A stretch of DNA of 64,000 nucleotides, taken from assembly GCA_025336685.1 (NCBI GenBank), contig GCA_025336685.1_4717.1. One strand, given 5' to 3'. The position numbers and the translations under genes are program-made. Shown here piece after piece: positions 1 through 52,093 of this stretch. Source of the DNA: Escherichia coli (lineage in GTDB: Bacteria; Pseudomonadota; Gammaproteobacteria; Enterobacterales; Enterobacteriaceae). The notes under the pieces were generated by a model. That model did no database searches. It saw nothing but the letters and a program-made list of their open reading frames with translations, and was not told the DNA's origin. Numbering within the stretch: position 1 is the stretch's first letter; each line of letters starts with the position of its first letter.

Positions 1-3000
1 GTTGATGCACAAGGTAACGTCGTACTTACGCTTGCCGACATGCAGAAAGGACTCGTCGATAAATACGGTAAAGCGATTCGTCGTTTAAAAGAAAAGCTCA
101 TCAACTTCGGTGTAAAAGCTTTTACGTTACCGTTAACCTTACTACGCAAGACAAAGGACATCCTTAAAACCCTTCCAGGTAAAACCGTTAACGGCCTACG
201 ACGGATGGGATTAAATTTCCAATCACCTGACGCATTATTGGTGGGAACAACGTCGAGCATGGTAGATCGTCTCGATGCTATTTACCAGCTCCTTGACCAA
301 CGTATGCCTGGTGGTGATAGGGATTATCGCGATTGGAATGGAGATGGCGTTCGAGAAGGATCGTTGGAAGACCTGAAACGTAAGCGTGCAGCCAAGGAAA
401 ACGGTAAGGATGACACTGGCAAAGATTCTAATAAAGGAGAAGAAAAGGAGAAGAAACGAGGATTACTCGGAAGCCTTTTCGATATGCTTGGCGACACCGC
501 ATTAGGTAAACGCCTCATGGCGAGTCCGCTTGGAAAAATTCTAGGTGGTCTTGGAGCGGTGTTAAGCGGCGGTGCATCGTTAACCGGGTTGTTAGGCAAA
601 GGCCTCATTAGTGGAACCGGCGCGCTGGTCAAGGGGGGACTAAGTGCGGCAGGATGGTTAGGACGTGGTGCGTTAATGGCGGGCGGGGCTGCATTGAACG
701 CTGTTGGTGGGTTATCGGGATTAGGTGCATTCCTCATCTCACCTGTTGGGCTTGCTATTGCTGGCGGTGCATTGGCTGCTTATGCAGGATGGAAGATCTA
801 TCAGCATTTCGCTGAGAAGCCTGACCCGATGCAGAAGCTCCGTCTTATTGCATACGGTGCAAAAGGGGACGATAAAGACTTCAATAAGAAGCTGCTTGCG
901 ACAGAAACATACCTCACCGACCATGTGGTTATGACTGGGGATACCATCGGATTCGATCCGAAAGCGGATTCTGAAAAGATTCTCGAAATCTGGGAATTGT
1001 CCCTGGAAGATTCCGACCGAATGAACGAATGGAAACGCTGGTATCTGCATCGTTTTATTCCTGTTTTCGCTCGTGCGTACAAACTCTGGAAAGAGCATAT
1101 GCCGGACGAGAAGAAATACATGGAAATGGATAAATATCCGAACGGTGAGAACAAGGTGAAATGGTCGGAAGCGTTTATCTGGCCTTCCGATAGTCCTGAC
1201 GGTCCGTATTACGTCGAAGCTAACCCGTTGGGTTCTTCTGGTGCGACGCGTTATATTGCTGGTCAAGACGTCAAAACCTTGATGCTGAAACAACTCGAAG
1301 CCATCAAGAAAGAGTACCAGAATCAGATCAAACAATACTCTCATGATGAGGCTATTGCTGATTGGTCACGGATGTCTGACACACAACGTAAATCCGTTGC
1401 GCCTAACGCATTACGTGGTCAGAAAGCGTCGTTACGTTTTAACGATAAGCGTTACAACAGTGCTGGCGCTAAAGGACGACAGAAGCTTGACGCAACCGCT
1501 GTTATTGAAAGCGTAGACCGTCGTGGTAGGAAATGGGTTGCTGGCGGATACATCGACGAACTCACCAGTCTCCGTGTTCGCGCGTACGGTATTAAGGTTC
1601 CGTTGTTAAGTCAGATAAAAGTGCTGATGGAACTCGAAGACGCTGTAGAACCTGGCGTAGTCGCTGAAGGTAAAGGGGTTAAATACGGTGGCGATCTTGT
1701 CGCGCTCTACAAGAAATTCGCGACGAAGTTCGGAAGAGACGTTAACAGCAAGCAGGATCAGGATATCTGGTTTGCTTGGATGAACAACCGTTTCCTACCC
1801 GTCTTTTTAACCTATTACCAACACGTTAGCGACATGGGTGGTCAAGGACTTCTGTCCGACATGGTACAGAACCTGAAAGACAGCCAACGTTGGGAAATCG
1901 GTGAAGCACTTGTCGCAACGCAATACCGTGATGAGAAAGGTGCACTCCAGCCTGTATGGTCCTGGAATAGTTGTGGTTTCTCCGGTACTGAAGCTAACAC
2001 CACCAGCAGTTCAACAAAGAGCCAACTCGATCTGTTAAAAGAATATGCGGATAAAGAGAAGGTTCGTGAGAAGAACGCGGAAGCATCGCAAGAGGACACC
2101 GATAAATTATCGAAGATCCAAGAGCTGATGATGAAGCAGGCTGGGTACGAGAAGAAAGACGGTGTCTGGCAGAAGAAATCACGCATTACCGGTGGGATGA
2201 GTAACGCCGAAGCGAATTACAACCCCAATGGGAATAGGGTAGGTGCAAGCAGCTTTACTGCTTCGGCTACTTCCAGTGCTGGGTTGGGGTCAACCGGCGA
2301 TCTTACCGGATTGCCTAACATGGGCTTACAGAAACCTGCAACGGGACCAGGTCCTGAAGCTGGACGTCGTGCGCTTGTTAAATCCGCTGTGAAACGCGGT
2401 ATTACCGATCCAATGGAAATGGCGATGTTCCTTGCAAACATCGAACATGAATCGGGGAACTACAGTCACGTACGTGAGGGGAACTATAAGACACCAGAGC
2501 GTCTTAAACAGGTCTTCCCTTACAAATTCCGTGATGTGCAGGATGCCGCACAGACGATCAGCATGGGACCAGAAGCGGTATTCGAACGCGTGTATGGTAA
2601 TCGTAAAGACTTAGGGAACACGCAGAAAGGAGACGGGGCGAAGTATTTAGGACGCGGCTTCATTCAGGTTACCGGTAAAGCTAACTACGCTCGTCTGTCC
2701 AAGACCTTGAATAAGGATCTTGTCAGCGATCCGACATACCTGGAAACGCCGGAAGGTGCGGCGGAAGGTAGTGTCGCGTGGTGGCTCAACCGAGGTAACG
2801 TATTACGCGATCCCGCAAAACGGGGTGACGTACGCCAAGTTCGTTATCTGGTTAACGGTGGTTATAACGGATTACGTGACGTTGAACAGCGCTCTGCTTA
2901 TTGGATTCAGGCGGCTAAGAACGGCACCCTGAAGAAAATGATGGACGAGTTATCGGGGTCAACATCAGACGATCAAGCTGAAGGACCGACCACCGCCGAA

Positions 3001-7441: not shown

Positions 7442-7953
7442 AATACACCAGTGTACTGACTGAGTGCGAAGGTTAGGAGTTCGCAACAGTCTCTCGCTAG
7501 TTTCCTTGTTTTGCGTAATCCATAAGCCGCATCCAAATCGTCACGTTCTGCCAGCGCGTCTAACCACGTCGCAAGTATGCGTCCATACTCGATAACGTCA
7601 CGCATGAGAACGTCGAACTGGATAACACGACCATCGGCATCAGCAAGCCAACGATTGAATGTGATTTGTGGTGCTAGTATTGCATATGTTCTCTCCTCTA
7701 ATGCTATTATGTTTATGTTGCCTTCGTTATCGAACGCTTGATGCCAACGGCGAAGGTCAAGCATCAACGACTCAGCGTCCATATACCACAACGGTAAATA
7801 CGTTTTACGTGCAACGCGTATATCGTAGATGTTGTGAACCCAGGACGTTGTTTTATAAAGCAACAAGAGTTCGTTTAACCGTTGCCTATCATCTTGAAAC
7901 GTCTTCCTTTTATAACGTTGGAATGCACGCCTCAAGAAAAAGCGATGTAACAT
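7438..7953 (-). CDS. Hypothetical protein (171 aa)
   Basis: ORF in a co-directional minus-strand block; divergent from 8087..8716. Confidence 0.5.
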   Translation of the reverse strand: MLHRFFLRRAFQRYKRKTFQDDRQRLNELLLLYKTTSWVHNIYDIRVARKTYLPLWYMDAESLMLDLRRWHQAFDNEGNINIIALEERTYAILAPQITFNRWLADADGRVIQFDVLMRDVIEYGRILATWLDALAERDDLDAAYGLRKTRKLARDCCELLTFALSQYTGVL

Positions 7954-8033: not shown

Positions 8034-8054
8034 TCATCATGAAGGTAATATAGT
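8034..8054 (+). promoter_or_regulatory. Conserved 21-mer CATCATGAAGGTAATATAGTC (candidate promoter), about 32 nt upstream of the 8087 start
   Basis: Identical 21-mer recurs at 35790..35810; contains a TATAGT (-10-like) hexamer with ATGACA 16 nt upstream at this site. Confidence 0.45.
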
Positions 8055-19422: not shown

Positions 19423-19857
19423 TTATGTTCTAATATGCACATCGTCAATCCCCTCGGTAATCCAGCCGATGGGAAGGACAATCGTTGTTATCGTGTTATG
19501 GGTGTAGGGATTAAGAAAATGGAAATAGTAATTTTTGTTAGACTGTTCAATGCGTAGCTCGAGCTGCGCATCTTCAGGTAACCGTAACCAAGCACCGTAC
19601 AGCTCATTAAACTTACGCTGAATTTTACCCGGGTTCATTGGAACCCTACGACCACGGTGGCGTAGCTGACGTAATGATTCAATCAAACACTCAGAGATAC
19701 CCATTACCGTTCCGTTATCGCTTGCATCAATAACGATGAACTCATGTGACCCGCGACCATGATAGAATCCAGCAACAAGCGCAACGGCGACAACGACAAC
19801 CGTACCGATACCTACGTACCAATAGTAAACGTCCATAACAGCCTCACTTATGCCCAA
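19423..19857 (-). CDS. Predicted membrane protein (N-terminal transmembrane segment)
   Basis: Hydrophobic stretch YYWYVGIGTVVVVAVALVAGFY. Confidence 0.45.
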   Translation of the reverse strand: MGISEAVMDVYYWYVGIGTVVVVAVALVAGFYHGRGSHEFIVIDASDNGTVMGISECLIESLRQLRHRGRRVPMNPGKIQRKFNELYGAWLRLPEDAQLELRIEQSNKNYYFHFLNPYTHNTITTIVLPIGWITEGIDDVHIRT

Positions 19858-20423
19858 TAGTCGGCGAGCGGTTTCACCTTATTAATGGGTAACTGTACTT
19901 TACCGATGTTCTCTACATCCGCATCAGCGTAGAGAACGATTTTATCGTCGTCTCTTTCCCAACGTATAATAAATCGACCAGGAAGAAGATTACCCTGTTC
20001 AAGAGATGCTGTAACCTGTTGTGTTAAAACAGACAACCAAGCAGGCATCAGTGTTGCAATATCTAAGTCATTTGACCACTCAGCACGTTGCTCCACTGGA
20101 CGCAACATACGTTGGACGGTGCGTTGAACTGTTGCGGTGATATAGCCTTTATCTTCGTCACTGATTGGATCCGGACGAGACACGAAACGTTCAGCAGGCT
20201 TACGGGAAATATGTTCATGTAGTTTGATGAGTGGTGTTGTCATAGTACTCGCTCCATCAGAATGTAATTGGGTAACCCGCAGGGTTGTCTGCATGTTATT
20301 CAGAAGCGCAAAAGCGCCATAAACAACAACGATACCAAGTACAGCCAAAACAGAAATCATTAACGTGTATTGCATTGTCATCTTCCCCTCATACGCATCT
20401 TGAAGATTAGTTAAAAACAACAA
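19848..20423 (-). CDS. Predicted membrane protein (N-terminal transmembrane segment)
   Basis: Hydrophobic stretch LMISVLAVLGIVVVYGAFALL; short overlap with the downstream gene. Confidence 0.45.
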   Translation of the reverse strand: MLFLTNLQDAYEGKMTMQYTLMISVLAVLGIVVVYGAFALLNNMQTTLRVTQLHSDGASTMTTPLIKLHEHISRKPAERFVSRPDPISDEDKGYITATVQRTVQRMLRPVEQRAEWSNDLDIATLMPAWLSVLTQQVTASLEQGNLLPGRFIIRWERDDDKIVLYADADVENIGKVQLPINKVKPLADYWA

Positions 20424-20470
20424 AAGAAAAAACGATATAAAGCAAGGTCCTCTGATATCAGAGGACCTTG
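20411..20470 (-). terminator. Rho-independent terminator (minus strand): perfect 28-nt palindrome followed by a T-rich tract
   Basis: CAAGGTCCTCTGATATCAGAGGACCTTG at 20443..20470; minus-strand T-rich run corresponds to plus-strand 20411..20440. Confidence 0.6.
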
Positions 20471-20476
20471 GATCAA

Positions 20477-21160
20477 TTAGCTTGCAGCATCTTCATTTGT
20501 ATCAGGTTTGCTTCCCCCTAACAAACCGTCAAACAGACCTGTATGTTTCAGGTAGAAGATAGCGATAGCGCCCATCGCTGCTGCGCTCGTCGCCGTTAAC
20601 GCAACCCCAGCACGATACTGCCATTTACGGTCAGGCTTTTGATCAAGCGCCATACGACGCATGTATTCAGCCTCTGCTTCATTCCGATGAATTTCGGATT
20701 CGGCCAGACGGGCTAAGGTATCGCGGTCAAGGTTATCATAACGTACGTTCATGGAAGTTTCCTCTTGTTTGGAAGTTGATTGCTTAGTGGATTCTTGGTC
20801 AACAGTCGTTTCAGTTGGTTCAAACGGCTGGTTGTTCATTTTCTGATCTTTATTGGTCATGATAGACTCCTTCGATTTTTGAGACGAAATTGATTTAAAC
20901 CATCGTGGATGGCGGTATTCGGTTTTACATGTACAGTTAAGTTTCTCGTGCATGAAAGCGTAAAAACGTTTTGCACCTACACGTAAGGCTTTCAGCATTA
21001 TCCATCCACGAGCACTCAAACGGTGTAGCTGTTGCGGTATGTCGAGTTTCCTAGCCAAGCGAAAGTATCTCTCAATCACTTCGATAGGAAACCATTGTTG
21101 TTCCGCATCGGTGAGACTGAAAGTCTTATCCATGATTGAAATCTCGCTGGCTTGCTTCAC
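20477..21160 (-). CDS. Hypothetical protein with C-terminal transmembrane segment
   Basis: C-terminal hydrophobic stretch VALTATSAAAMGAIAIFYL; acidic/Ser-Thr-rich middle. Confidence 0.5.
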   Translation of the reverse strand: MKQASEISIMDKTFSLTDAEQQWFPIEVIERYFRLARKLDIPQQLHRLSARGWIMLKALRVGAKRFYAFMHEKLNCTCKTEYRHPRWFKSISSQKSKESIMTNKDQKMNNQPFEPTETTVDQESTKQSTSKQEETSMNVRYDNLDRDTLARLAESEIHRNEAEAEYMRRMALDQKPDRKWQYRAGVALTATSAAAMGAIAIFYLKHTGLFDGLLGGSKPDTNEDAAS

Positions 21161-21178
21161 CTAGGTAATATAGCCGTG
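21161..21178 (+). promoter_or_regulatory. Promoter-like motif CTAGGTAATATAGCCGTG in a divergent intergenic region
   Basis: Shares the AGGTAATATAG core with the 21-mers at 8034 and 35790; lies upstream of the plus-strand gene 21283..22104. Confidence 0.35.
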
Positions 21179-21282
21179 AAAAAAGTTGGATTAAGTTAAA
21201 TACCGCAACCTAACTAATTTTATAGGCCTACAGCCTAAACCAATCATCTTCGAAATCATCATCTACGAAACAGGAACCTATC

Positions 21283-22104
21283 ATGGAAAAAGTATTTGTT
21301 TGTAAGCTGTTTACTAACGGCAATAGCCAACCAATGTATCTGACCGATCCGGTTCTGGGTAATCGGAACAGTACTGTATTCAAAGAAGCTATCGAATACG
21401 CTAAAAATAAAGCCGTGAGAACACTGACGTCCGATGACTGTATCAATGGTATCACGTGGGCAGAGTTATTAGGTGATGCTGTTAGACACTTCGTTCGGGA
21501 TGCAAGAAAACAGGAAATCAGCCTCACGACCATTGTCGTGCGCGAAAACGCAGAAATTTTATCAAACGTTTTAGTTGATTTTAATGACGTTTACGTGTTT
21601 AATCCAGAGAACACTTTTGAACAATACCTTGCCGCCCTGAACAAACAGCTCGGTAAAGATGTTCATCCCGAATTCGCCAAGTTAACGTATCAAGTACTTT
21701 TTGACGACGTCGATCCGAATACGAAGATCAGCACCCGCTTAAACTGCCAGATAAAGAAATACGGATCGGTTCTTGCTACAGCGACACCTACCATCGATGG
21801 CGGTTATGATATCGAATTGGATTCTCCATTAAAAGAACAAGAACCTACTGGGGTTCGGGCAATACATCATACCCTCGTCGTTAAATCCGATGGTTGTGAT
21901 GAACATTACGCTATGACAAACGATGAAAATAATCACCGTTTAAGTCAAGCGATCGGTGTTCTACGTTATACCGAACCAACCACTGTAGACGATTATACTT
22001 CGACAACAACGCACACCACGTGTTTCATTTTCATTTATCCAAATGAAAGTGTGTACATTACTGACTGCTACGGCAACACGGTAGATAGCTTACGTCGTTA
22101 TTAA
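21283..22104 (+). CDS. Hypothetical protein (273 aa)
   Basis: ORF followed by a canonical terminator. Confidence 0.5.
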   Translation: MEKVFVCKLFTNGNSQPMYLTDPVLGNRNSTVFKEAIEYAKNKAVRTLTSDDCINGITWAELLGDAVRHFVRDARKQEISLTTIVVRENAEILSNVLVDFNDVYVFNPENTFEQYLAALNKQLGKDVHPEFAKLTYQVLFDDVDPNTKISTRLNCQIKKYGSVLATATPTIDGGYDIELDSPLKEQEPTGVRAIHHTLVVKSDGCDEHYAMTNDENNHRLSQAIGVLRYTEPTTVDDYTSTTTHTTCFIFIYPNESVYITDCYGNTVDSLRRY

Positions 22105-22110
22105 TCATGG

Positions 22111-22138
22111 AGCCTGTCCTTCGGGGCAGGCTTTTATG
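22111..22138 (+). terminator. Rho-independent terminator (GCCTGTCC-TTCG-GGGCAGGC + TTTTAT)
   Basis: 8-bp GC-rich stem, TTCG tetraloop, T-tract; immediately after the stop of 21283..22104. Confidence 0.65.
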
Positions 22139-22205
22139 CTGTTAAATATCAGGAATAAGAATTAACAAAATAGGAAAATGGTGTGAATATAACACAAAGG
22201 AGGGA

Positions 22206-22328
22206 GATGATTATGTTACTCATTCTAATGGAGAGAGCATTGCTGGCGGGTATATGCGCATTCTCTGTTAAACACGCTGTTGCTATCATGACTGAAGAAA
22301 GGCGTAATACGCATAATGTATTACGCTG
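22206..22328 (+). CDS. Small hydrophobic protein (40 aa), below the ORF-track size cut-off
   Basis: ATG with strong Shine-Dalgarno AAGGAGGGAG upstream; fills the gap before 22335; encodes MIMLLILMERALLAGICAFSV... Confidence 0.35.
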
Positions 22329-22334
22329 AAAACA

Positions 22335-22748
22335 ATGTCTGCATTAGTGTATGACGAGAAATCGTCGAGGCCCCCGTCTTCACGAGGGCCAACACCTATG
22401 CGCGACTATTTACCATCTACGAAACAAAGGGTTATAAACATGAGCAATTTGAATGTTGAATTTACTTCAACAACGCCCGTCATGAATGGCGTTGGTACTG
22501 AAACTAAGATCGTATTAGAACCCATCCCGGGGTTACGTGATCTCGGTGATTTTTACCAACTGATGCCACGTATACGTAACGCCTTAAACAGTATCGATCT
22601 TGATTCTGATAAAGATTTCCAACACGATACAGAAAATACCGATCATGTGTTGCTACCATCAGGGATCGGAAAATTCACCTACACGCAAACATTGAAAGCC
22701 TCCGATGGTGAAATCCGTCGTTTTATTGTTGAAGTAGAAAGCGCATAA
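22335..22748 (+). CDS. Hypothetical protein (137 aa)
   Basis: ORF followed by a family hairpin at 22753..22784. Confidence 0.5.
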   Translation: MSALVYDEKSSRPPSSRGPTPMRDYLPSTKQRVINMSNLNVEFTSTTPVMNGVGTETKIVLEPIPGLRDLGDFYQLMPRIRNALNSIDLDSDKDFQHDTENTDHVLLPSGIGKFTYTQTLKASDGEIRRFIVEVESA

Positions 22749-22752
22749 AAAC

Positions 22753-22784
22753 CATCCTCCCAACCCGTAAGGGAAGGGAGGATG
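22753..22784. terminator. Family hairpin CATCCTCCCAACCC-GTAA-GGGAAGGGAGGATG at a convergent junction
   Basis: 14-nt arms with a single AA/AA mismatch; between convergent genes 22335..22748 (+) and 22802..23443 (-). Confidence 0.55.
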
Positions 22785-22801
22785 AAATATGCCGTTATAT
22801 G

Positions 22802-23443
22802 TTATTCAACAAATCCCGCGTTCAACAAATTGTCGTAAACACGATTAGCGACATCAACAGGAGAATGTGTGTTACTGGTGTCTATACACAACGTTTTCGC
22901 GTCGCCGAGATAGTCCATAAAATCCATGTAACGATAACGTCGTTTATTGAATGTCGCTTCATCGATGTTATCAAACATCTGATGTTTAGCGTGTCGAACA
23001 CGGAATCGCCTTAAATACGTAGGATAGTCAATATCCAGATAAACGTAGTAAGACGGCATGATAATCGACGGTAGGTTCGGCAACAACGCATCAAACAGCT
23101 TAACGTTGGCATCATTAACCTGATAAACGTACGTCGAAGCAATCGAACGATCGCTAAGCACAGTCTTCCCTTCGTTAAGGGCTGGATGAATCACCTTATT
23201 GAAGAGATGATTACGTTGCGACATCATCGCCAACAGTTCAGTTTCTGGATCGAATCTGTTCGTTGGCGTCTGATCTTCCAGGATAAGTTTACGAATCGCT
23301 TCTCCGTAGAGTGTACCACCGGGTTCACGTACGACGCAGACGTTGTTTAAACGACTGTGTAAAGACGAGATAACCGAACTCTTTCCTGAATAATCCAGAC
23401 CTTCAATAACGATATATTTATTACGAGACATTCCCCGCTCCAA
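22802..23443 (-). CDS. tmk: Thymidylate (dTMP) kinase
   Basis: N-terminal KYIVIEGLDYSGKSS P-loop, REPGGT and DRSI(A)S motifs match the bacterial Tmk pattern (KYIVIEGLEGAGKTT ... REPGGT ... DR). Confidence 0.75.
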   Translation of the reverse strand: MERGMSRNKYIVIEGLDYSGKSSVISSLHSRLNNVCVVREPGGTLYGEAIRKLILEDQTPTNRFDPETELLAMMSQRNHLFNKVIHPALNEGKTVLSDRSIASTYVYQVNDANVKLFDALLPNLPSIIMPSYYVYLDIDYPTYLRRFRVRHAKHQMFDNIDEATFNKRRYRYMDFMDYLGDAKTLCIDTSNTHSPVDVANRVYDNLLNAGFVE

Positions 23444-34926: not shown

Positions 34927-35709
34927 TCATGCGAACGTTTCTCCTGTAACGTGTTGTGGGCGTTGTAGCATGGTAGCATCCCATTGTACGATCCGGCTCC
35001 GGCTTACCCGCATCATGACGGATTCATCGTCAAGCCCCGGTTGCGCAACCGGCAACCAACGTTCGTTAAGCACCTTCGCTTCAACCCGTTTCTTGCGTGG
35101 GTTGTAACGCACCTCGCTAACCCAAGCGAATCCAAGCGGATGCACAACCCGTGGATAATACGTGCGAAGCAATTGATGCATCCGATCCAGTACCTCCAAG
35201 CTCGCATCGGCCATGTATGGTTTCACCATGGTAAGCTTTTTGGTGTAATACGTCCCAACGGTATGGTTCGCCCACCCGGGAAGCACGTGATGGAATCCTA
35301 CCTGTAATTGTGTATTGCCGTTCACCTTCAGCCAACCGTATTGTCCAGCCGCACGTCCCTCGTCAGTATCGATCCATGTAAGTATATCGATGAACGCACG
35401 ATCGGTGATCTCGATGCGTTCCACCCGTTCATCCAACGCACCACGTACCACGAATCCGCTCGCGCTCACCCGCGCAGGATGCTGGCTGCGATGCGCGTAC
35501 CAATTCTTGTTGCCGGTAAGCAGGTAAGGGTACGTGTGAGCACCCCGCCAAACAACCGTTCCGTTCGTCCCATCAACACAGTGTACATACATCCCATCTT
35601 GACCGTTGTTGTAGCATGCTACCTTCACGCATTCGTTTTGAACATCGCTCGGTAACGCCAGGTATTCACCTTCGGTAAACATGGTATCAAAAATGATTTC
35701 TTCGTTCAT
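34927..35709 (-). CDS. Paralogue family B protein (3 of 3), divergent N-terminus
   Basis: C-terminal VHPLGFAWVSEVRYNPRKKRVEAKV aligns with VHPLGYALVYDVRWNTNLQTVEVKI of 32870..33703. Confidence 0.55.
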   Translation of the reverse strand: MNEEIIFDTMFTEGEYLALPSDVQNECVKVACYNNGQDGMYVHCVDGTNGTVVWRGAHTYPYLLTGNKNWYAHRSQHPARVSASGFVVRGALDERVERIEITDRAFIDILTWIDTDEGRAAGQYGWLKVNGNTQLQVGFHHVLPGWANHTVGTYYTKKLTMVKPYMADASLEVLDRMHQLLRTYYPRVVHPLGFAWVSEVRYNPRKKRVEAKVLNERWLPVAQPGLDDESVMMRVSRSRIVQWDATMLQRPQHVTGETFA

Positions 35710-35789
35710 CTAAAAAGATCCTCTGTTTTTCACGTTAATTAAACAACGTATTGATTTCTATTTAACGCAATACGAACATCGTACGTATG

Positions 35790-35810
35790 CATCATGAAGG
35801 TAATATAGTC
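35790..35810 (+). promoter_or_regulatory. Conserved 21-mer CATCATGAAGGTAATATAGTC (second copy)
   Basis: Exact 21/21 identity with 8034..8054; sits at the left edge of the AT-rich region, pointing into it. Confidence 0.4.
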
Positions 35811-36415
35811 GTGAAAGGATTTGCATTAAAGCAAGGGTAATTGTTTTGTTTTAAGAAGGGATGGATGATAGCGGTATCTGAAAGGAGAAGGATTTTAAGG
35901 AAGGTCTTGATTGAAGTAAGTGAAGAGGATGATTATTTCGGTTTAAGTAAGTAGGTAAGTTATCGTGTTATTGTTTTTTGTCTTAATGGTTTTATCGTTT
36001 TATCTGTTGTTTATATAAATCAAATTAAATTATAAAGTCAGTTAAGATGTTGGTTAACAACGTTCAACTCAAAAAACCATTTGTGATACTCTTCTTCACG
36101 TTGTTCATCAGAGTATCTCGTCTATACTCATTGCATTCGTATACGACATAACCGTTATACGCTAACGCTACGCTTATAGCTTGATAACTCTAAGGATAAA
36201 AACATAAACTCGCTTCGCTCGTTTAGTTTTTCTTTTTCTTAGAGTTATCCTGTTGCTCGTCTCTAAAGGACTTCGCTCCTCCCCCGTCCCCCGAAGGGGC
36301 CGAGGTCGTGGAAATTTTACTTTCCAAATACATTTACAACATCTGTAAACTTTTACTCCAGGTACTTAATCTTATCATTAGAAATTATAAAGAGAAGAAT
36401 AAACACAAACATAAA

Positions 36416-36447
36416 CCTTCCTCCAACCCAACAGGGAAGGAGGAAGG
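36416..36447 (-). terminator. Family hairpin CCTTCCTCCAACCC-AACA-GGGAAGGAGGAAGG after the stop of 36461..37354
   Basis: 14-nt arms with one mismatch; on the minus strand it is followed by a T-rich run. Confidence 0.55.
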
Positions 36448-36460
36448 GATACAATGGTTA

Positions 36461-38040: not shown

Positions 38041-38239
38041 TAAACACATAGAGCAATAGTATGGGTTTTGTACAGCTCGGCTATTGCTCTTCTACAATTT
38101 GGTTGTAACAATCTGCGTGGTTGCACGCTTATCTTTCTCATTGAACGCTTCGTATGAAGCGTGGTGTTGAAAGGGTTGTGGATCTCCTCAAGCGGCCAGG
38201 GACCCAGACCAACCTGAATAAACACAAACACATGTTAAG

Positions 38240-38272
38240 CCCCTCCTCAGCCCTTATCGGGTTGGGGAGGGG
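38240..38272. terminator. Family hairpin CCCCTCCTCAGCCC-loop-GGGTTGGGGAGGGG (imperfect) at a convergent junction
   Basis: Between 37498..38040 (+) and 38336..38971 (-); two mismatches in the 14-nt arms. Confidence 0.45.
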
Positions 38273-38335
38273 TCTTATACGTCTTTATACGTTTCGTTCG
38301 TTCTGGTGTGTTTTAGAACGGTTTACAGCAGGGTT

Positions 38336-49320: not shown

Positions 49321-49335
49321 TTAACACCCCTTAGG

Positions 49336-49545
49336 TTACGGTAGGATTTCTGCGCCCGTCGGGCCTGCCTTACGAGCTTCCAACGCACCAAGGTCGTATT
49401 TCAACGTCAGCGTATCGTTGGTGGTAAATAGGTTGTGGTAAGTCGAAATCAGATCGGTAACCTGTGCGCCTACGATCTCGTTCATGTCGAAGGCAGAACC
49501 TTGACCATCATCAGCACGAACGATTTTGTCGCCAGCAGAGACCAT
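49336..49545 (-). CDS. Small hypothetical protein (69 aa)
   Basis: Fills an otherwise empty gap between two minus-strand genes. Confidence 0.35.
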   Translation of the reverse strand: MVSAGDKIVRADDGQGSAFDMNEIVGAQVTDLISTYHNLFTTNDTLTLKYDLGALEARKAGPTGAEILP

Positions 49546-49614
49546 CCCAATTTCAGAAATAACCGCGCAGTACTCTTCAATTACCCGGAGAGTTTAGCCA
49601 CATTGAGATATTCG

Positions 49615-51098: not shown

Positions 51099-52046
51099 TT
51101 AGCCTTGTTCTTCTGGAGAACGACCCTGGAGGCTTGCGGTATGTCCGTCGACGTTGTAATAGAAAATCAATGGACCGCCGACAGCAGTACAGTAGTTTTC
51201 ATCCAGACTGATCTCGATACCGTATTGGTAACCTGCTCGTGCTGGAATACGTCCGCCTAACTCGCCGTTGAAAGCCACTTTAGCGTTATACAGGTTATAC
51301 GGTGCGATGTTGTCGTCTAATACCCAACGATCGGCGGTCATTTCAGCCAGAAGATCGGCGACCACCACATCGCTAATGACCGTACCTGTTACCAGCGAAG
51401 CCAGCAACTCACCGTAATCGGAAGTATCACGACTGTAGCTGTAGATTTCACCGCTAGCGCGTACGCCTTGTCCGAAGAACTTAAGACCATCAAGCTCTTT
51501 GATTGCGATAATATCATCAAGATTCGGTACACGCGATTTCATCAAGATACGAACACTTCCCGTCCAAGCCAGGCAATCAGATACGACACGGAGCAATTGT
51601 CCGTTAACGGTATCCCAGTTAAGTTCGTCGTTGACAATTTCTTCTGCGGTAAGGCCGAGACCGAAACGTTCTTTGATGATAGGCCAGATATCACGCATCT
51701 TGGTGGCATCTGGTGCATCGATAAGAATAGGTGCTACGTTACGTAGATACGCACCGATGTTAATACGATCGTAATACAGCGTCGTCGAACCTTCGTAATC
51801 GTCTAACTCGGTAAGCTTAGCGGTTGCCGTTGCCGTAATCTGGGTATCGCGCTCGTAGGCGCTTTGGTTGGTGGTTGGTGTCCCTAAAACCAATAATTCA
51901 GGGGTTAGAACATGTTCTCCGTTCTGAGGTGGGTTATCGTGGTTGATAAGACCATACACGAGATCGGATGAGGGTAAAGAGACGTCGACCGGGTAAAGTT
52001 CGGTGTCGTCAATAGTTGTTACCGTATCACTCACGGTGACCTCCAC
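51099..52046 (-). CDS. Putative structural protein, paralogue family C
   Basis: LYYDRINIGAY, LAWTGSV and NYCTAVGG motifs. Confidence 0.55.
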   Translation of the reverse strand: MEVTVSDTVTTIDDTELYPVDVSLPSSDLVYGLINHDNPPQNGEHVLTPELLVLGTPTTNQSAYERDTQITATATAKLTELDDYEGSTTLYYDRINIGAYLRNVAPILIDAPDATKMRDIWPIIKERFGLGLTAEEIVNDELNWDTVNGQLLRVVSDCLAWTGSVRILMKSRVPNLDDIIAIKELDGLKFFGQGVRASGEIYSYSRDTSDYGELLASLVTGTVISDVVVADLLAEMTADRWVLDDNIAPYNLYNAKVAFNGELGGRIPARAGYQYGIEISLDENYCTAVGGPLIFYYNVDGHTASLQGRSPEEQG

Positions 52047-52093
52047 GCCAGGAATTAATTAAAAAAGACTTTACGATTTGCTGCGCTATCACG

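Follow-up and report, generated by a model that had tools for sequence, protein, structure and literature searches.

Gene order around the small ORF

The window (the whole stretch of 64,000 nucleotides that was analysed) is ~93.5% identical to Escherichia phage Goslar (vB_EcoM_Goslar), a nucleus-forming jumbo phage, and between 22090 and 22470 the identity amounts to 97%, with the same gene order. The locus comprises the gp005 ortholog (21283-22104), an intrinsic terminator, a non-coding leader, a small ORF preceded by a Shine-Dalgarno (SD) sequence, a conserved folded element that overlaps the end of the ORF, and the gp007 ortholog (Table 1). The neighbours of the small ORF include genes for a virion protein, a thymidylate kinase and RuvC, and its position (after the gp005 terminator and before gp007 and the thymidylate kinase gene) is identical in Goslar and in metagenomic relatives. 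The comparative set consisted of 22 related genomes, in which the deepest comparison lies at ~83-89% nucleotide identity (L006 and L022).

The initial annotation had described the small ORF as unannotated, which is wrong, as its Goslar ortholog is the CDS gp006 (HOV27_gp006, YP_009820691.1 / QBO63799.1), a 'hypothetical protein' of 38 aa. The window peptide is identical to Goslar gp006 at 37 of the 38 residues (T27 in place of A27) and falls in the same 90% cluster as YP_009820691.1; public contigs that carry exactly the window peptide number 80, and those with the Goslar allele 433. We observed no difference of substance between the two copies, which share the slot between the gp005 terminator and gp007, the SD sequence and the downstream RNA fold, so that the window simply carries another allele. 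The small ORF is already known, as an allele of a RefSeq hypothetical protein that is confined to one phage group; a study of the function of gp006 was not found in the searchable literature.

The terminator closes the gp005 ortholog and parts it from the small ORF, and only 1 of its 27 columns is variable among the 22 genomes. In one relative (L007) gp005 is mostly deleted and the terminator, the leader, the small ORF and gp007 are all intact, indicating that the small ORF and gp007 form a unit separate from gp005. If the gp005 terminator is efficient, the stretch 22137-22196 must contain a promoter. We found no sigma-70-like site in this stretch, nor does the chimallivirus early motif CTATATTACC occur ahead of the small ORF. 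A conserved TATG, the core of the PhiKZ late promoter (PMC7618050), is present at 22135-22138, but the locus holds several copies of this tetranucleotide (for instance also at 22397-22400) and it is too short to be diagnostic. A 13-nt match, CATCTACGAAACA, occurs upstream of both gp005 and gp007 in this genome and was dropped as a promoter candidate because it is absent from Goslar. The lack of an early-promoter motif, together with a downstream partner that is an abundant virion protein, argues weakly for expression of the small gene at middle or late times rather than for a role in early host takeover.

Table 1. Features between gp005 and gp007, and gp007 itself, in the window
Feature	Coordinates	Strand	Remarks
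Intrinsic terminator	22110..22136	+	GAGCCTGTCC-TTCG-GGGCAGGCT followed by a T-run; read from the sequence; annotated as terminator in Goslar
Upstream non-coding stretch	22137..22196	+	20/60 columns variable (22 genomes); intact in L007
Shine-Dalgarno sequence AAGGAGG	22197..22203	+	GGAG/GAGG core kept in 22/22 relatives
First ATG plus one codon	22207..22212	+	probably an untranslated spacer, not the start
Small gene (Goslar gp006 ortholog)	22213..22329	+	38 codons plus TGA; product MLLILMERALLAGICAFSVKHAVAIMTEERRNTHNVLR
Hairpin 1	22301..22327	+	11-bp stem, 5-nt loop; spans the final nine codons of the small gene
ATG taken earlier as start of the next gene	22335..22337	+	kept in 6/22 genomes; CTG, TTG or GGG in 16/22
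Three-way folded element	22340..22402	+	ends in CCTATGC; most conserved piece of the locus
gp007 ortholog (102 aa)	22440..22748	+	conserved ATG at 22440, the Goslar-annotated gp007 start

Start codon and coding evidence of the small ORF

An ORF of 40 codons had been placed at 22206-22328. The ORF exists, but these coordinates are one base off: the first ATG (ATG1) lies at 22207-22209, a second in-frame ATG (ATG2) at 22213-22215 and the TGA stop codon at 22327-22329, giving 40 codons from ATG1 and 38 from ATG2. The strong SD sequence reported ahead of the ATG is real as well, and most genes of this phage have a weaker one, but it is separated from ATG1 by only 3 nt, against 9 nt for ATG2 and a typical distance of 6-9 nt in the genes of this phage. 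The codon between the two ATGs (22210-22212) reads ATT, ATC, ACT or AAC among the relatives, and ATG2 is an ATG in all of them except L002 (GTG). Since the 9-nt spacing fits the other genes of the phage, the spacing to ATG1 is too short and the intervening codon is free to vary, the small gene probably starts at ATG2, as judged from the sequence. A homology search returned 9 clusters, all called at 38 aa and with 87-97% identity to the window peptide; a few 40-aa calls from ATG1 are also present in the protein collection.

By itself the pattern of an SD sequence followed by an ORF does not go beyond chance. AGGAGG with an ATG within 3-10 nt and at least 38 open codons occurred at least once in 31% of simulated 64-kb windows (first-order Markov), and of the 23 copies of AGGAGG in the window most lie away from gene starts. 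It is therefore the comparative data alone that lift the ORF above chance. The frame contains no stop and no indel over 117 nt in any of the 22 genomes, and the flanking non-coding stretches carry several indels. An open frame among such close relatives is nevertheless expected by chance (P(no stop) = 0.85), and in view of this and of the simulations the length and openness of the ORF were rejected as evidence for coding.

The substitutions were more informative. Of those common to at least two genomes 9/15 are synonymous (P = 0.011 by randomisation), and where they do alter the amino acid the change is milder than random (P = 0.012). Codons 1-23 contain 8 of these shared substitutions, every one of them synonymous (P = 1.3e-4). 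These significant tests rest on splits that were made post hoc (shared versus singleton, and codons 1-23). When all substitution events are pooled, 14/32 are synonymous and the excess is not significant (P = 0.095); the singletons look random (5/17 synonymous), and radical amino-acid changes occur, though rarely (L3P, C15R, R30G, R31C and F17V). Relative to L006, the most divergent relative, the small ORF shows 8 synonymous and 4 non-synonymous differences (dN/dS 0.15). When the substitutions among the relatives are read in the other two plus-strand frames, the synonymous to non-synonymous ratios are 9:22, with three new stops, and 6:25. The codon-usage log-odds of the frame (-0.3 bits) is the best of all six, the other five ranging from -9 to -42, and corresponds to the 3.7th percentile of real in-frame windows. 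Alleles present on 26 to 433 contigs differ at residues 24, 26, 27 and 30 only (A/T, M/I, A/T and R/K, respectively); the sole exception, found on 26 contigs, carries GTG in place of the second ATG. Variable sites are distributed flatly over the codon positions (11/6/10, in a first set of 14 sequences). Synonymous divergence is 0.04-0.11 in the small ORF versus about 0.22 in the flanking genes, which implies that some constraint acts on the nucleotides themselves, and the nucleotide diversity of the ORF is 0.044 versus 0.043-0.053 in adjacent intergenic DNA. Taken as a whole, the sequence comparisons make it very probable that the small ORF is a translated gene.

A conserved predicted fold ahead of gp007

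The best-conserved element at the locus is not the ORF itself but a folded RNA of ~100 nt (22301-22402) that overlaps its end and consists of hairpin 1 and the three-way element. The U of the stop codon takes part in the last pair of hairpin 1. None of the 11 pairs is lost in the 12 distinct sequences, in which two changes in the stem preserve the pairing (G-U to A-U and C-G to U-G) and a third is located in the loop. Hairpin 1 is followed by GAAAACAAUG, which is not a U-run, and the terminator scan lists no plus-strand terminator at this position. The three-way element has a closing stem (UGCAU/AUGCG plus GUGU/ACAC) and two hairpins (GACGA-GAAA-UCGUC and GGCCC.CGU-CUUC-ACG.GGGCC). Folding of 22296-22405 gave a minimum free energy of -40.5 kcal/mol (z = -4.6). 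Among the 22 genomes, 3/63 columns are variable in 22340-22402, compared to 31% in the ORF and 73% in 22403-22439, and within the fold the variable columns are 3/66 of the paired versus 13/49 of the unpaired ones (Fisher P = 0.001). Since the fold of the minus strand is just as stable (z = -4.87), thermodynamics could not be used to assign the strand; the pattern of G-U wobbles weakly favours the plus strand. As there are, in addition, no compensatory double changes in the fold, the RNA reading is not proven. A scan of 21900-22900 against Rfam yielded no real match (two chance-level hits, with E-values of 6.8 and 8.2, remained far below the gathering scores) and ARAGORN detected no tRNA or tmRNA. 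Repeat copies of the intergenic elements were found neither in the window nor elsewhere in phage records; the folded element is present in single copy, and in Goslar-like genomes only.

We also re-examined the statement that the small ORF ends 6 nt before the ATG of the next gene, and it did not hold. The ATG in question starts 5 nt after the stop codon and is poorly conserved, and 1-nt indels between 22335 and 22440 break the frame among the relatives, so that the 137-aa reading from 22335 is an artefact of this genome; the conserved next start is that of gp007. The variable sites of gp007 are distributed over the codon positions as 3/4/32, and its dN/dS is 0.05-0.10. The small gene and gp007 probably share a transcript, and the SD sequence of gp007 is weak. 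According to mass spectrometry of the Goslar virion (bioRxiv 10.64898/2026.04.21.720040), gp007 is present in about 250 copies per virion; an N-terminal gp007 peptide does not appear in the accessible part of the table. Distant gp007 homologs, sought in order to reach diverged syntenic loci, were not found; all matches were at least 80% identical.

The peptide and its possible roles

The first ~23-26 residues of the peptide are hydrophobic (MLLILM-ER-ALLAGICAFSV-KH-AVAIM), and a polar tail with a net positive charge occupies the last 12. On the Kyte-Doolittle scale the best window of 19 residues reaches 1.97 (usual threshold 1.6), but the Hessa free energies add up to +2.26 kcal/mol and E7/R8 and K20/H21 break up the hydrophobic stretch, so that membrane insertion is not assured. 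For comparison, scores of 0.4, -1.9 and 1.0 were obtained for the neighbouring proteins gp002-gp004, with their clear membrane-span-like segments, and of at least 9.7 for the soluble neighbours; the peptide thus lies between the two classes, nearer to the former. AlphaFold predicts a single helix (residues 2-37, mean pLDDT 81). The 'one hydrophobic helix' of the initial annotation is accordingly retained as far as the predicted helix is concerned, but as a membrane span this helix is borderline. No homologs of the peptide outside the Goslar-like phages were found by tblastn (50,697 phage records), by a word-indexed search (5.8 billion proteins) or with a profile HMM (1.84 billion representatives), and no family in PHROGs or Pfam matched; a 492-aa match at E = 5e-4 was made up of four short matched stretches and was discarded as spurious. 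The peptide is absent from the accessible part of the Goslar virion mass-spectrometry table (bioRxiv 10.64898/2026.04.21.720040), which argues only against a role as virion component. A search for ribosome profiling of this phage returned nothing.

With moderate confidence we take the best explanation to be that the small ORF is a real gene, orthologous to Goslar gp006, and encodes a 38-residue helical peptide that is started at 22213. The data demonstrate the ORF, its SD sequence, its conservation and selection on its amino-acid sequence, from which translation, membrane association, timing and role are inferred. Ribosomes would bind AAGGAGG and initiate at the second ATG, and the product would form one continuous alpha-helix. 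Most likely it is a small membrane-associated protein, with the N-terminal helix in the inner membrane and the basic tail in the cytoplasm; alternatively, it may be an adaptor whose hydrophobic helix is packed onto a partner protein. Expression would be from a gp006-gp007 unit downstream of the gp005 terminator, probably transcribed by the non-virion RNA polymerase of the phage at middle or late times, and the 3' end of the ORF would double as one arm of the conserved folded RNA that precedes gp007.

That last property also suggests a different reading, in which the ORF is a regulatory upstream ORF whose translation matters and whose peptide is a by-product. Ribosomes at the stop codon would melt hairpin 1 and sit at the foot of the three-way element, and translation would thereby set the fold, the stability or the translatability of the gp007 message. 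The location of hairpin 1 over the last nine codons and the stop codon, the conservation of the folded element far beyond that of the coding part, the unusual stability of the fold and the strength of the SD sequence are all in line with this, as are the tolerance of radical amino-acid changes, the change R31C (C-to-U, in two genomes), which keeps its hairpin pair as a G-U wobble, and the weak SD sequence of a gene that nonetheless encodes an abundant virion protein. Leader ORFs that act by translation-dependent refolding likewise combine a short ORF, a strong SD sequence and an ORF end inside a stable, conserved RNA before a gene. On the other hand, amino-acid selection on residues 1-23, visible in the uniformly synonymous shared substitutions, would be needless for an ORF that only has to be translated, and it sets the gp006 peptide apart from such leaders. 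Between the stop codon and the start of gp007 there are 110 nt, and the predicted fold does not include the SD sequence of gp007, so that no mechanism of occlusion is visible, and the RNA nature of the fold is itself unproven, given the equally stable minus strand and the lack of compensatory double changes. Unlike attenuation leaders, the locus has no terminator/antiterminator pair, no U-run after hairpin 1 and no regulatory codon runs. Classical transcription-translation attenuation would moreover be implausible in a nucleus-forming phage, in which, according to a review (PMC12908238), transcription and translation are physically separated. We regard the regulatory upstream ORF as unlikely. 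Somewhat less likely still is that there is no gene at all, but a chance open frame in a conserved non-coding leader or small RNA, constrained at the RNA or DNA level and annotated by gene callers merely for its SD-like purine run. The frequency of the pattern in simulated windows, the open frame expected by chance, the non-significant pooled excess, a nucleotide diversity equal to that of adjacent intergenic DNA, the slowly evolving synonymous sites and the confinement to the Goslar-like group would all fit such a frame. However, the shared substitutions are strongly synonymous or conservative specifically in this frame and the other five frames score far worse; the common alleles differ conservatively only, the one change at the start yields another start codon, the 117 nt lack indels, of which the neighbouring non-coding stretches have several, and no Rfam family matches.

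The small size and the hydrophobic helix of the peptide invite comparison with membrane-active peptides. The initial annotation had proposed a holin or antiholin, and the peptide indeed resembles phage holins and antiholins (for instance lambda S105/S107 and the pinholin S21) in its hydrophobic helix, its charged C-terminal tail and its two in-frame start codons two codons apart, which might make it a lysis timer with a lambda-like dual start; in addition, the nearby gp002-gp004 also have membrane-span-like segments. Its other proposal was a host-interference peptide, a role on which the data bear only through the weak argument on timing given above. The holin or antiholin role finds no support in the further data, and we consider it very improbable: known holins are far longer than 38 aa and have one to four clear spans, against a single stretch here that is borderline as a span and broken by charges, no endolysin, spanin or other lysis family (Pfam) was found among the eight neighbours, and the partner in the transcription unit is a virion protein. 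The residue between the two methionine codons is variable (I, T or N) and never charged, and since ATG1 is also only 3 nt from the SD sequence, the dual start is unlikely to be functional. A reading as type I toxin (a toxic small membrane peptide like Ldr, Fst or TisB), restrained by a structured mRNA or an antisense RNA, seems the most improbable of all. Peptides with an Ldr/Fst-like architecture have a hydrophobic N-terminal helix and a charged tail in fewer than 50 aa, and the gp006 peptide is similar in size, in its single helix, in its hydrophobic N-terminal two-thirds and in its charged tail; at 38 aa it is well below the 60 aa applied to hydrophobic peptides of this kind, the surrounding mRNA is highly structured, and the minus strand offers a terminator-like hairpin (22326-22302). 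It differs, however, in the interruptions of the hydrophobic stretch and shows no sequence similarity to any family, and an antisense promoter-like site was not found on the minus strand of the ORF region. Transcription of chimallivirus DNA does not involve the host polymerase, as established for PhiKZ.

More speculatively, and with a low probability, gp006 and the folded RNA could constitute one Goslar-like module that couples translation, in the cytoplasm, of a hydrophobic micro-protein to the fate of the gp007 message, in which case the coupled step could be the stability, the localisation at the nuclear shell or the translation of the gp007 mRNA; or gp006 could be a membrane factor that, with the gp002-gp004 proteins, acts at those stages of chimallivirus infection that involve vesicles or membranes. 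As it stands, the significance of the finding is small, as it concerns a known hypothetical protein of one phage group. Nevertheless, returning to gp006 as a genuine small gene, it would be a reasonably well-supported micro-protein of fewer than 40 aa in a nucleus-forming jumbo phage, and to our knowledge the small proteins of these phages are essentially unstudied. The analysis also corrects the local gene model, with the small gene starting at 22213 and the next gene at 22440 instead of 22335, and draws attention to an unusually conserved and stable RNA fold ahead of the gene for an abundant virion protein. Goslar is genetically tractable, with dCas13d knockdown and published RNA-seq data (bioRxiv 10.1101/2023.09.20.558163). 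Predicted tryptic peptides of the small gene product include ALLAGICAFSVK and HAVAIMTEER or HAVAIMAEER.

The small gene gp006 and its start codon

Over 2.3 kb around the small ORF, the window shares 93.5% identity with a nucleus-forming jumbo phage of the Chimalliviridae, Escherichia phage vB_EcoM_Goslar; no other phage record matches this stretch. The ORF had initially been taken as unannotated, but this closest relative has a CDS at the same position, gp006 (HOV27_gp006, YP_009820691.1; 38 aa), which starts at the second of the two in-frame ATGs (ATG1 and ATG2; see the table). The small gene is therefore already in RefSeq as the hypothetical protein Goslar gp006, of which the window has a common allele: public contigs with exactly the window peptide number 80, and those with the Goslar allele 433. 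A search with the peptide gave nine clusters (90% identity), each at least 87% identical to it and with a called length of 38 aa. Its own cluster was the sole result when a profile was run against 1.84 billion representative proteins, and PHROGs and Pfam gave no match.

Features of the gp006-gp007 locus and copies of the early-promoter-like motif in the window
Feature	Position	Strand	Remark
Terminator	22110-22136	+	boundary between gp005 and the small gene
Shine-Dalgarno AAGGAGG	22197-22203	+	3 nt from ATG1, 9 nt from ATG2
First ATG of small ORF (ATG1)	22207	+
Second in-frame ATG (ATG2)	22213	+
TGA stop of small ORF	22327-22329	+
11-bp hairpin	22301-22327	+	covers last nine codons; last pair includes U of stop codon
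Three-way element	22340-22402	+	second part of fold
Mechanical 137-aa ORF	22335-22748	+	over-extension of gp007
CTATATTACC	8044-8053	minus	upstream of minus-strand gene at 7953
CTATATTACC	21164-21173	minus	upstream of gp004 ortholog at 21133
CTATATTACC	35799-35808	minus	upstream of minus-strand gene at 35709

Between 22190 and 22340 the window reads ...ACACAAAGGAGGGAG ATG ATT ATG TTA CTC ... TTA CGC TGA AAACA ATG..., which gives 40 codons from ATG1 and 38 from ATG2; a mechanical ORF list takes the frame back to a GTG at 22183. The ORF of the initial annotation is thus present, with its coordinates shifted by one base (22206 for the first ATG), and the strong Shine-Dalgarno sequence claimed for it indeed precedes it. 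Most genes of this phage have GAGG or AGGAG cores 6-9 nt before the ATG, a spacing that suits ATG2 and not ATG1. We gathered 21 related loci from IMG/VR, ENA, NCBI, Logan and JGI and aligned the region 22100-22450 (22 genomes with the window). In these relatives ATG1 and ATG2 are separated by ATT, ATC, ACT or AAC (I, I, T or N if translated), the eight codons that come next are nearly invariant, ATG2 is kept as ATG in all but one locus (L002, a GTG allele present on 26 contigs), and the core GGAG/GAGG is present in every genome aligned. Together with the spacing, this comparison puts the predicted start of the small gene at 22213.

By itself, the combination of a Shine-Dalgarno sequence and an ORF is no more than chance. 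The window has 23 AGGAGG sites, few of them ahead of real genes, and in first-order Markov simulations 31% of the 64-kb sequences had at least one AGGAGG with an ATG 3-10 nt further on that opened at least 38 codons. Several of the SD-like motifs away from gene starts are GGAGG sequences inside hairpins like the long, near-perfect one at 22753-22784 (CATCCTCCC-AA-CCC-GTAA-GGG-AA-GGGAGGATG), which sits where gp007 and the thymidylate kinase gene converge and has a T-run on its minus-strand side only.

Selection on the peptide and its properties

The evidence for coding is mixed and, on balance, favourable. At this shallow divergence the frame would stay open by chance with P = 0.85, and the variable sites by codon position (11/6/10 in the first set of 14 sequences) show little periodicity. 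Conservation, the check proposed initially, was favoured by the comparison with L006, the most divergent relative (gp005 83% identical), which gave 8 synonymous and 4 non-synonymous differences (dN/dS 0.15), and by indels, of which there are none in the small ORF and several in the non-coding flanks; it was less clear over all substitution events (14/32 synonymous vs 10.1 expected, P = 0.095). Substitutions seen in a single genome look random (5/17 synonymous, and including L3P, C15R, R30G and F17V), those common to at least two genomes were synonymous in 9 of 15 cases (P = 0.011) with amino-acid changes milder than random (P = 0.012), and in the hydrophobic part (codons 1-23) all eight shared substitutions were synonymous (P = 1.3e-4), both splits having been picked post hoc so that these nominal P values are to be discounted. 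Among the alleles found on many contigs, differences are confined to residues 24 (A/T), 26 (M/I), 27 (A/T) and 30 (R/K). The other two plus-strand frames have synonymous to non-synonymous ratios of 9:22, with three new stops, and 6:25. Codon usage scored -0.3 bits of log-odds in the small-ORF frame vs -9 to -42 in the other five; compared with genuine in-frame windows, however, the score of this frame falls at the 3.7th percentile. Synonymous divergence was 0.04-0.11 in the small ORF vs about 0.22 in the flanking genes, indicating constraint at the nucleotide level. Taken together, these patterns make it likely that the small ORF is a translated gene with a peptide under selection.

The peptide (MLLILMERALLAGICAFSVKHAVAIMTEERRNTHNVLR) was modelled by AlphaFold, with a shallow family alignment, as one helix of residues 2-37 (mean pLDDT 81) that is not amphipathic (hydrophobic moment 0.05-0.18). 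The hydrophobic helix proposed initially is supported by this model and by the best 19-residue Kyte-Doolittle window (residues 1-19, mean 1.97); a membrane span is less clear, the summed Hessa scale being +2.26 kcal/mol because of E7 and R8. As the same sum is 0.4, -1.9 and 1.0 for the gp002, gp003 and gp004 orthologs, which have clear membrane-span-like segments, and at least 9.7 for soluble neighbour proteins, the peptide lies near, though not clearly inside, the membrane-span range. By the positive-inside rule its positively charged C-terminal tail would be in the cytoplasm.

The gp002, gp003 and gp004 orthologs are three consecutive minus-strand genes (19423-21133) beside the small gene and downstream of an early-promoter-like motif. 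Each has one clear membrane-span-like segment (N-terminal in gp002 and gp003, C-terminal in gp004) and none has a Pfam match. Possibly these genes form a group that encodes membrane proteins made early; infection by this phage starts within a lipid vesicle.

A conserved predicted RNA fold and the start of gp007

The region 22296-22405 is predicted to fold with an MFE of -40.5 kcal/mol (z = -4.6), and no other part of the locus is as well conserved as the element at 22301-22402 (roughly 100 nt). Each of 12 distinct sequences retains all 33 pairs; the three changes among them that fall on paired positions leave the pairing intact (G-U to A-U, C-G to U-G, U-G to U-A), and double compensatory changes were not found. 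Variable columns number 3/66 paired vs 13/49 unpaired (Fisher P = 0.001), and 3/63 in the three-way part vs 31% in ORF codons 1-29. A fold of like stability is predicted for the minus strand (z = -4.87), which leaves the strand of the element undecided, with a weak preference for plus from the wobble pattern. The element is single-copy, occurs in Goslar-like genomes only and has no match in Rfam. Given the conservation of the hairpin, the invariance of the C-terminal NTHNVLR may owe as much to the RNA as to the peptide; R31C, found in two genomes, arises by C-to-U and leaves the pair in the hairpin in place.

The initial annotation had the small ORF abutting the next gene, which does not hold. 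The ATG at 22335, 5 nt past the stop, opens a 137-codon frame and is retained in only 6 of the 22 genomes; Goslar has CTG there and loses the frame through a 1-nt deletion upstream of 22440. In many relatives the ATGs at 22335 and 22398 are unusable (CTG/TTG/GGG substitutions, 1-nt indels), and 22403-22439 is the most variable stretch of the locus (27/37 columns, with single-base indels). From 22440, which corresponds to the start ATG of Goslar gp007 (102 aa), variable sites are in the ratio 3/4/32 over the three codon positions and dN/dS is 0.05-0.10. This conserved start gives 102 aa and leaves the two genes 110 nt apart. Some metagenome gene calls have a 116-aa form. Goslar gp007 is listed as an abundant virion protein, with about 250 copies per virion and 64% sequence coverage (bioRxiv 10.64898/2026.04.21.720040), and the folded element might serve this gene as a regulatory RNA, in a 5'-UTR or intercistronic position.

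On the best reading, the small gene has a genuine product: a hydrophobic, helical micro-protein of 38 residues that is probably associated with the membrane and probably encoded in a single unit with gp007. Under the main rival reading, the chief role of the ORF would lie in being translated, with the conserved RNA upstream of gp007 remodelled as a result; the apparent selection on the first 23 residues argues against this as the whole story. A chance ORF, to which the simulated frequency of the pattern and the open frame lend some weight, is improbable. The initial suggestion of a holin or antiholin is not supported: the peptide is too small, its single weak span is broken by charges, Pfam gave no lysis family among eight neighbouring proteins, and the seeming dual start has neither the charged residue that defines one nor a suitable distance from the SD. 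A specialist would find no surprise in these results; their modest interest lies in the comparative support for a phage micro-protein of fewer than 40 aa, the revised gene starts and the fold conserved in the RNA.

Transcription unit and timing

In one relative (L007; ENA ERZ28649724 scaffold_1, locus 2634-3000) most of gp005 is deleted, with remnants of about 125 nt, and the terminator (also annotated 3' of gp005 in Goslar), leader, small gene and gp007 are all intact. This supports gp006-gp007 as a putative independent unit, and gp005 appears dispensable.

The chimallivirus early-promoter core described for PhiKZ, TATATTAC (PMC7058600 Table 2), is contained in CTATATTACC, whose three exact copies in the window are all on the minus strand and are likely early (virion RNA polymerase) promoters of this phage. 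The window scan found no such motif ahead of the small gene, and gp006 is not among the accessible rows of the Goslar virion protein table (bioRxiv 10.64898/2026.04.21.720040). Together with the virion location of gp007, this suggests that the non-virion polymerase may express the small gene at middle or late times. An RNA-seq study of Goslar has been published (bioRxiv 10.1101/2023.09.20.558163).

An identical 13-nt sequence, CATCTACGAAACA, is found at 21260-21272 and 22414-22426 (plus strand), 10-13 nt before the gp005 and gp007 start codons. It is absent upstream of gp007 in Goslar, and the pair may be a chance match or a trace of local recombination. We also found a 751-nt region (35710-36460) that holds one early-promoter-like motif and lacks a convincing ORF (37 aa at most, bar a 70-aa GTG frame entering the next gene), and other gaps of about 290-400 nt at 38050-38335, 49321-49614 and 51699-52093; all four may hold non-coding RNAs or more small genes.
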